Assembly (NCBI GenBank): GCA_951406725.2
Contig: OX597832.1
Span: 43,028,001-43,092,000 of the forward strand
Source: Octopus vulgaris
Taxonomy: Eukaryota
Direction of reading: 5' to 3'
DNA: 64,000 nt
Positions 49,501 to 51,484 of the stretch are shown in pieces. The translations under genes and the position numbers were made by a program. Position 1 is the first letter of the stretch. The number at the start of each line of letters is the position of its first letter. Below the pieces are notes generated by a model, which did no database searches, was not told where the DNA came from, and saw only the letters and a program-made list of their open reading frames with translations.

Positions 49501-51259
49501 TTATTGTAGTAGTAGTAGTAGTAGTAGAAGTAGTAGTAGTAGTAGTAGTAGTAACAGCAGCAGTAGTAATAGTAGTAGAAGTAGTAGTAGCAGCAACGGT
49601 TGTAGTAGTAGTGGTTCTTGTAGTATAATAGTAGTAGTAATAGTACTACTACTCTACTAATAGTAGTAGTAGTAGTAGTAGTAGTCTACTACTACAACTA
49701 CTAGTAGTAGTATTTGTAATAGTAACAGCGGCAGCTGTAGTTGTAGTACTAGTAGTAGTAGTAGTAGTAGTAGTAGTAGGTGTTAGTAGGTTGTTGTTGC
49801 TGTTGTTGCAGTTGTGGTTGTTGCTCGTGGTAGTGATGGGGTGTTTTCTTGTTTCTGTCGGTGTTTTTCTGTTGCTCACAGCATGAAGAATGTGAAAATA
49901 ACATTTTGATCGTTTAAATAAATTAAATAAATATCCCATCTCTTTAATCTGATTTCCTCCAAGAATCGACTTCAGTTCTTATAATTCATGCATAAAATCT
50001 ATCTGTCAACTCCCCCATCCATCTCTCTTCCTCTCCCTCTCCCTCTTACACACACATTATAATTATATTTATATTTATCAGGTCATATATATATAGATAC
50101 ATATATATATATATATATATATATATATATATATATATATATATATATATATATATATATATATATATATATATATATATATATATATATATATATATAT
50201 ATATATATATATATATATATATATATATATATATATATATATATATATATACACATTACATGCATACTTTACATATATATGAAATACAGATATAGAAAAT
50301 GATTGAGAGATAAGGAAGATTCAAACGGATACCTACATAAAAAGCGTTGTATATAATATGTACATGTATGTATATCTGTATGTATATATATATATATATA
50401 TATATATATACATATATATACAAATATACATTTGTACATACATACATATATATATATATATATATATATATATAGATAGATATGTACATATATGTATATA
50501 TATACACACACATGTATATATATATATATATATATATATATATATATATATATATATATCTGTGTGTGTGTTTATGAATATATGTAGGTCAGATTTCACG
50601 CCACATTTCAGGCATGTGTGCGATTGACAAAAAAAAAGGAAAGCAGAAAAATGAAACGAAGTAATTCTTCTCTTAAATGCCTCATTTAAAAAACACATCC
50701 ACCCAGTAGCATCTCGATAATATCAATGAAACACACGCATACAGTATTCATATTGACTATTTTCATGACATACGTACATGTGCACTCGTATCATTACATA
50801 AATATGTAAATGTATGTAGGGCTGGAGAGGTTTCGTAAATGTTAGTTCAAGGAATTAATTAGTCCACCAAGTACAAGGCTGGAAACTGGATATTGAGAGT
50901 TTGTATCTATTTATCTATCTATGCATCTATCTATCTATCTATCTATCTATCTATGAATATGTATTTATCTATGTATATGTGTGTAGTATATATATATATA
51001 TATATATATATATATATATATATATATATATATATATATATATATACATACATACATACATACATACATACATATATATATATATATATATATATATATA
51101 TATATATATATATATATATATATATATATATACAACAACAATTAAGGAATGGCCTTAATAGGCCATTCGGCCCACTAGAAGAAGCAGCCAGGACTCAAAC
51201 CGCTAAGTAGTAGTAATTCAGAAATTAGGTGAAAATTTAAAAACATTTACCCTAATTCA

Positions 51260-51354
51260 TCTTTAGACGATGCATCGTTTCGGTGTTTTTAATGGCAAAC
51301 CAGCTTAAATTAAATTAAGTCAATCTACCAAAGGCTACACCTCATCAGTAAAGA
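51260..51354 (-). ncRNA. Canonical type I hammerhead ribozyme
   Basis: Minus strand TCTTTA-CTGATGA-GGTGT[extended hairpin]ACACC-GAAA-CGATGCATCG-TC-TAAAGA: 6-bp stem I, 5-bp stem II base, palindromic stem III, GUC cleavage triplet (C at 51266). Confidence 0.9.
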
Positions 51355-51484
51355 GACCAGGAGAGACGGATATACACGAGGCATCCATATATATATATAA
51401 ATTATATATCATATATATCATATTATATATATAATATATATAAGATATATATATATTCATATATATATATTATATCATATATAT

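Follow-up and report, generated by a model that had tools for sequence, protein, structure and literature searches.

What is a complete hammerhead motif doing in a short island between TA repeats of the octopus genome, and how did it come to be there? The motif lies on the minus strand of the 64-kb stretch of Octopus vulgaris DNA analysed here (the window). Since type I hammerheads are known and common in animal tandem repeats, the motif alone is unsurprising. Its family is another matter: a non-coding family that shows the Penelope tail rule, with a very young clade and two definable cis modules, so that an in vitro assay already available could address who moves retrozymes, whether their template is a circle or a multimer, and where the tail and the inverted arm come from.

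The hammerhead and its island

The first-pass annotation had read a full core and all three helices on the minus strand, and each part could be located between 51354 and 51260 (Table 1): the core elements CUGANGA, GAAA and UH, and three helices with stem I open, as in type I. Stem III is, as had been claimed, a perfect palindrome (12 nt, 51267-51278), and the (TA)n-bordered island, put earlier at about 260 bp, measures 254 bp (51133-51386) with TA repeats on either side. In the predicted fold of the window motif, stems I and II both carry internal loops. The stem II insertion had been described as long and atypical; long it is, with a domain of 60 nt, but it is no peculiarity of this copy, being a conserved trait of 58-78 nt across the family; the sister clade described below keeps a long stem II too.

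Table 1. Features of the island and its flanks (positions in the window)
Feature	Position	Strand	Basis or remark
5'-truncated single-arm copy of the 474-bp retrozyme unit	51133..51386	-	93-95% identity to the L010 unit
Type I hammerhead motif, complete consensus core	51260..51354	-	pattern and covariation
Stem I, 5' strand	51349..51354	-	pairs with 51260-51265
Stem I, further predicted helix	51355-51361 with 51250-51259	-	fold prediction
Core CUGAUGA	51342..51348	-	sequence
Stem II domain, 60 nt	51282..51341	-	5-bp base, internal loop, 10-bp helix, tip hairpin
Stem II base	51337-51341 with 51282-51286	-	
Stem II distal helices	51321-51330 with 51293-51302	-	
Stem II tip hairpin	51304-51319	-	
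Core GAAA	51278..51281	-	
Stem III, 12-nt palindrome	51267..51278	-	includes A15.1/U16.1
C17 (of GUC), cleavage predicted 3' of 51266	51266	-	consensus-based prediction
GC-rich hairpin	51147..51168	-	immediately 5' of insertion end site A
CCUWWAUUG-type motif and 3' junction (site A)	51133..51147	-	putative reverse-transcription start of the window copy
(TA)n target	50987..51132		at the element 3' end
Degenerate TA-rich flank	51387..51490		at the truncated 5' end

The island corresponds to unit position 351, through the cleavage site, to about position 135 of the tandem unit described below, and the closest other copies diverge from it by 1.5-3%. It is a lone truncated arm with one ribozyme and without a second start site, so that no unit-length RNA can come from it; as a truncated monomer it does not by itself contain the two consecutive units that define non-LTR retrozymes. 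Its ribozyme core is intact, and a read-through transcript may, if the active fold forms, still be cut. No RT/GIY-YIG ORF in the 64-kb window is linked to the island. Adjoining it on the plus strand (51508-51700) is what we take to be a common SINE-like repeat, with other copies in the window.

A check with the Rfam models, suggested along with the original claim, went the other way: the 64-kb window gave zero hammerhead matches at the gathering score, the best result being Hammerhead_3 alone, below that score (16.3 bits, E 1.4). The miss is probably due to the long stem II, which falls outside the models. A 100-nt stretch with the motif has a fold z-score of -3.2, with 3 of 200 shuffles equally stable. 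Its computed minimum-energy fold is not the active one and pairs the core with stem III instead; the active fold is predicted to lie 2.1 kcal/mol above the minimum, with about 1-2% occupancy as a monomer, or 3.9 kcal/mol above it when the whole island is folded, and to have near zero occupancy in two older subfamilies. Stem III is predicted at -1.0 kcal/mol as a hairpin versus -18.7 kcal/mol as an intermolecular duplex, a contrast in line with what has been described as the dimer mode of metazoan type I motifs (PMC4209133).

A dispersed tandem family under selection

A search of the octopus's own genome (2.8 Gb, 227 contigs) with the island gave at least 50 matches from the best 40 of 2067 candidates scored. 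The copies build a tandem unit with a period of 474 bp, for which locus L010 supplied the reference, and its longest stop-free frame (58 codons) leaves no room for protein coding; the unit also appears to lack the structure of an LTR retrotransposon. The 3' core motif has 659 genome-wide matches at one mismatch or fewer; among the 100 matches listed, all are exact and carry the palindrome in its CG..CG or its CA..TG form, never mixed. A sister clade, about 72% identical and with units of 484-499 bp, adds 820 exact motif matches, in arrays of up to 10 motifs, and reversed-pattern controls for these genome-wide counts returned 0. High copy number and tandem arrays, which the first-pass annotation had thought worth looking for, are thus both present. 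Sister-clade loci differ by a mean of only 5.7 substitutions per unit, which marks the clade as young; one locus holds seven identical units, and intermediate subfamilies are present as well.

The family is therefore a non-coding tandem unit with one type I hammerhead each, dispersed in many copies, and so has the sequence properties of non-LTR retrozymes as we took them from PMC7229834 and a preprint (10.64898/2026.07.22.740005). Like the metazoan retrozymes described in those two sources, it consists of low-GC tandem repeats and occurs as dispersed monomers, dimers and multimers in a genome that also has autonomous Penelope-like elements (PLEs). Its unit of 474-496 bp stands at the upper end when set against the 150-450 bp of invertebrate retrozymes (350-390 bp in mussel), and its stem II domain contrasts with their usual 4-bp helix. 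The 4-5-bp palindromic stem III, the TA targeting and the inverted two-armed insertions with a fixed tail are likewise unlike the metazoan retrozymes described there (PMC7229834; 10.64898/2026.07.22.740005). Contigs of four sequencing runs (two guessed to be RNA and two of unknown kind, under three organism labels) cover 28-29 of 30 bins, although such contigs carry no information on strand, ends or transcription. At four further places (L208:295-449, L185:6788-6898, L276:365-453 and L282:5-171) short TA-flanked repeats gave weak profile matches (E 1e-4 to 0.02), and these look like distant, ribozyme-decayed relatives of the unit.

For covariation we used 116 mapped sites, 56 from a first set and 60 from the first 100 matches listed for the 3' core motif; both sets were selected for carrying a ribozyme, and the second lies on larger contigs. 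The pattern caught the full motif in 83 sites, and the 73 distinct ones formed the alignment. Of its 2109 cells, 94.4% are paired, versus 28-46% in slid-partner controls. Both partners have changed in 72 cells, against a mean of 21 in the shuffles, none of 500 of which reached that figure; the count includes inherited changes repeatedly, and related sequences can beat shuffles in it; the number of pairs with a double change, five, is not above shuffles (433 of 500 as high). A pair at the base of stem II is G-C in 49 copies and A-U in 21, and one of stem III is A-U in 51 and G-C in 20, the double change from G-C to A-U preserving the palindrome. In the sister clade both strands of stems I and II have changed, positions 7 and 17 vary and stem III is near-palindromic. 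That stems I-III covary across clades 72% apart implies that the fold has been selected, and the window hammerhead is, in our view, a real and selected one. The absence of such homologues had been named in advance as grounds for rejecting it; they are abundant, and stems II and III covary.

The core itself is not uniform. U4C stands in place of U4 in 38 of 83 family sites, two more sites have other core defects, and the exact 18-mer matches comprise 39 U4C against 33 U4, with the window's own variant accounting for four of the 33. U4C has been described as less active in vitro, yet able to support viroid infectivity (PMC3088659). With U4C so widespread and a stem II of 58-78 nt conserved, the family offers a natural series in which to ask how much cleavage is needed for the cycle.

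Insertion sites and Penelope-like elements

The 3' ends of the copies, in RNA sense, abut TA repeats at two places about 95 nt apart: site A, about 128-147 nt after the cleavage site, and site B, about 227-238 nt after it. Fifty-nine of the 116 sites are two-armed and inverted, with the 3' ends outward. Among these, 54 combine A with B, none is A+A or B+B, and five have one end elsewhere, i.e. all 54 assignable inverted insertions obey a one-of-each rule. The other 57 sites are single arms, ending at A (39), at B (15) or elsewhere (3). Either arm of a pair may be the longer, and either may bear the tail. In the sister clade, 15 of 20 loci chosen for several motifs are clean A+B; two have a short B arm in the flank, two have deletions near an end, and for one an end was not fetched. 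One of the deleted loci is A+A by coordinates, yet its terminal letters are those of B.

In each of the three subfamilies compared, a GC-closed hairpin with a CCUWWAUUG-type motif after it precedes both sites, mostly by 10-18 nt, and the hairpins before A and B show compensating changes. The choice of site A by an internal UA run pairing with the target was considered and rejected, as the sister clade has the same end without such a run. Of the 88 arms in the first set, 70 extend across the cleavage junction and nine do so twice; one sister arm measures 4608 bp. Wherever an arm exceeds one unit it continues into another unit, not into an ORF, at every one of the 116 sites and 20 sister loci. 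Some sister-clade arms contain sub-unit tandem duplications beginning near site A (about 162 bp in L233, 99 and 241 bp in L254), possibly template jumps during reverse transcription.

Inverted 5'-truncated arms and a tail of 30-40 bp at one end are hallmarks of PLEs (PMC3846280, PMC8557442), and the 5'-truncated, tandem and inverted insertions seen here, with their one-end tail, have this Penelope-type structure. The earlier guess at a retrozyme or Penelope-like family was therefore a good one on both counts: the repeat is dispersed and tandem, lacks an ORF, has a single type I hammerhead in each unit and is inserted in the Penelope manner. In vitro work on the anole element PAc places the two edges of the PLE tail at internal reverse-transcription start sites downstream of the hammerhead; the reaction cuts and extends both strands of the target, and a dimer is predicted for the protein (PMC11167929). 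The head-to-head inversion, the two end sites downstream of a hammerhead and the AT-rich targets are common to our family and the PLE insertions so described. On the other hand, the octopus unit has no ORF, its tail is about 95 nt rather than 30-40 nt (PMC3846280, PMC8557442, PMC11167929), a hairpin-plus-motif module is repeated before each end site, and each arm is strictly paired with one site, whereas PAc start sites show no difference between the two strands in vitro (PMC11167929). In the two retrozyme sources, movement of animal retrozymes by PLEs is argued from co-occurrence and pLTR homology only, and word searches of their main texts turn up no analysis of tails or inverted insertions (PMC7229834; 10.64898/2026.07.22.740005).

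The same genome has RT/GIY-YIG ORFs that are intact at 781 and 753 aa and include a CX4CX2C linker, as well as two older related families. We call these Neptune-type EN+ PLEs on the basis of the C-terminal GIY-YIG and the linker, following PMC8557442, and not of a tree. They too insert in TA repeats and have a hammerhead-like motif upstream of two end sites, and a short end is paired with a long one in 11 of 12 two-armed loci (5/5, 5/5 and 1/2, with L185 set aside), the exception being L265 with two long ends. Because the end-pairing rule and the TA targets are shared, we conclude that the retrozyme inserts like a Neptune-type PLE. In contrast to the retrozyme, these elements have minimal cores (a U3-A8 variant in two families), shorter tails of about 37-55 nt and no sequence similarity to the unit. 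The two young families are those with the 781-aa (L121-L124) and the 753-aa ORF (L290-L296); the first has an overlapping upstream ORF and the U3-A8 variant core. Several autonomous tails also have in common a CCACGTG-type core between the two end sites (L189-L216, L265-L289, L290-L299), which from its sequence could possibly be a protein-binding signal distinct from the retrozyme module.

Our search for an autonomous partner combined a GIY-YIG family search, a DNA search with the PLE end of L172 and one protein search, taking the best of 6136 and 21930 candidates; four families had their 3' ends read in detail and several were sampled once. None of the sampled PLE families shares the unit, and a 60-unit profile run over 110 PLE loci matched only weak remnants and separate insertions of the retrozyme. 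Non-autonomous Chlamys elements such as MRC1 likewise form head-to-tail multicopy insertions in microsatellites, mostly without canonical hammerheads, and resemble autonomous partners at the 3' end (PMC8557442), while no partner with such a 3' end occurs here among the 110 PLE loci.

The linkage to a Penelope RT/GIY-YIG ORF that the first-pass annotation envisaged did not materialize: no such ORF stands between repeats, as in a pLTR-ORF-pLTR element, either in the window or at family loci. The sole apparent fusion (L172/L185), in which a PLE 3' UTR runs directly into a retrozyme arm via a 5-base overlap, is better read as a nested insertion. A PLE-retrozyme template switch is disfavoured there, the PLE inverted arm carrying its own long end; the other arm would be expected at the short site, which is exactly where the retrozyme joined, so the simplest history is a later nested retrozyme insertion at the PLE short end. 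Comparable adjacency within one TA tract is seen at L057/L186.

We found no published description of this family in the octopus or cephalopod retrozyme, hammerhead and Penelope literature; Repbase, Dfam and the supplements of PMC7229834, PMC8557442, PMC4209133 and the preprint were outside the scope of that search and may list it. Literature searches on long stem II insertions in self-cleaving hammerheads, and on inverted target-primed rolling-circle insertion linking retrozymes and Penelope, also gave no match. New here are the long stem II, the 95-nt two-module tail and the strict end pairing.

Template, priming and origin

How, then, was the island made? We consider it probable, with real reservations, that it is one 5'-truncated copy of a tandem element with a 474-bp unit and no ORF, likely a non-LTR retrozyme, and likely copied into TA repeats by a Neptune-type PLE protein acting in trans. 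Tandem copies would be transcribed, and the hammerheads, probably as dimers held by the stem III palindrome, would release unit-length RNA that is then ligated into a circle. A partner protein, probably itself a dimer, would bind the two similar RNA modules (hairpin plus CCUWWAUUG) and nick both strands of a TA repeat; reverse transcription would begin at one site on each strand, about 10-18 nt behind the respective hairpin, and each cDNA would circle the template for a variable length before the two were joined at their far ends. The window copy would be one arm, begun at site A and halted after 254 nt. Counting against this account are that no partner was found, the tail of about 95 nt, unlike the 37-55 nt of the autonomous families, the minor share of the active fold, the spread of U4C, the PAc ribozyme mutants discussed below, the lack of a strand difference in PAc start sites, the in vitro cleavage of only one of nine Xenopus retrozyme dimers (10.64898/2026.07.22.740005), the variants of L246, the weak arm tests and the two long ends of L265.

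A more specific version, which we offer tentatively and regard as doubtful in its entirety, is that the retrozyme exploits the dimeric Penelope-type protein of a partner whose sequence it does not share: a single ribozyme-made circle would present two hairpin-plus-CCUWWAUUG modules, each subunit would bind one and prime one TA strand, and both would roll round the same circle. If this were true, the Penelope tail and the inverted arm would be products of one fixed two-module, two-strand reaction, the family would offer the first insertion-signature evidence for movement of an animal retrozyme, and the long conserved stem II would be a candidate protein-binding or regulatory arm.

The template can be addressed in the young sister clade. 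There, units in opposite arms of an insertion differ by 0.07 substitutions (14 pairs, from only 3 loci), units in the same arm by 1.2 (80 pairs) and units at different loci by 5.7 (1181 pairs), and L249 and L253 have variants private to one insertion but common to both arms. In the older clade, where the own partner was ranked among 65-147 arms, it came first outright in 14 of 38 sites and first or level with another arm in 23; a cruder arm-versus-arm test picked the own partner for only 18 of 76 arms, but it used the minimum over overlaps that differed, which biases it. These sequence comparisons support one template per insertion, and they lean to a circle as that template; circular RNAs have been demonstrated for mussel, coral and axolotl retrozymes (PMC7229834). 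In L246, however, two variants recur in non-adjacent units, which is not expected from one circle.

Such a recurrence would suit a reading in which the same family uses the same Penelope machinery with an uncleaved linear multimer from a tandem locus as the template, the ribozyme being kept for RNA end formation or turnover, or being weakly active. We think this unlikely, although it draws on several observations: PAc ribozyme mutants insert normally in vitro, uncleaved RNA being the substrate (PMC11167929), U4C subfamilies have multiplied, and homogeneous source arrays would also yield single-haplotype daughters. Selection for all three stems across clades 72% apart is hard to square with it, as are the private variants of L249 and L253 in both arms, and arms of up to nine units would need very long uncut transcripts despite the intact sister-clade core.

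The case for two primings, rather than one, is better still. The inverted arm and the A/B asymmetry might instead follow from a single priming with subsequent fold-back or endonuclease resolution; the tail has earlier been ascribed to endonuclease resolution (PMC8557442) and inverted junctions to self-priming (PMC3846280), and several of our junctions do fall within hairpins or short overlaps. Yet either arm can be the longer or carry the tail, single arms terminate at A or at B, the two sites are equally distant behind a hairpin and a shared motif, and both tail ends are reverse-transcription start sites in vitro (PMC11167929), all of which makes a single priming improbable.

More improbable again is a reading of the unit as terminal repeat (pLTR) in an autonomous PLE yet to be found, with the copies as its 5'-truncated stumps and tandem expansions. 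Arms beyond one unit lead into another unit and never into an ORF (116 sites, 20 sister loci), tblastn of a Neptune protein detected neighbouring insertions only, and the sample contains ORF-free subfamilies with diagnostic variants of their own. This has to be set against a polarity, ribozyme first and then two end sites, that matches the autonomous PLEs of this genome, against the homology of Xenopus retrozymes to pLTRs (10.64898/2026.07.22.740005), and against a PLE sample drawn as the best of 6136 and 21930 candidates; the unit may well descend from a pLTR. Finally, the match might be accidental or long dead, and its ribozyme structure unselected. One could cite for this the lack of an Rfam match at threshold, the active fold not being the energy minimum and a stem III double change that could also be two CpG-type transitions, but its probability is negligible given hundreds of copies with invariant core columns and double changes in stems I, II and III, non-CpG ones included.

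A few other elements of this genome were noted. An unrelated two-armed element (L099, G000:C1:183008335-183011598) has a canonical hammerhead with a 59-nt stem II domain and a palindromic stem III, so that long stem II arms recur in this genome. In the window itself, a 378-codon frame (25762-26898, minus strand) reads like the RT region of what is presumably a LINE. Twice (7933-7955, plus strand; 32541-32563, minus strand) the window has a short repeat that carries a minimal hammerhead-like core and ends at a TA repeat; this short repeat recurs in several other loci of the genome. Lastly, at 9455-9925 a TA repeat harbours a further insertion with two inverted arms, one of them longer at the outer end and each with a small hammerhead-like motif (9571-9591, minus strand; 9859-9879, plus strand); it belongs to another Penelope-type family.
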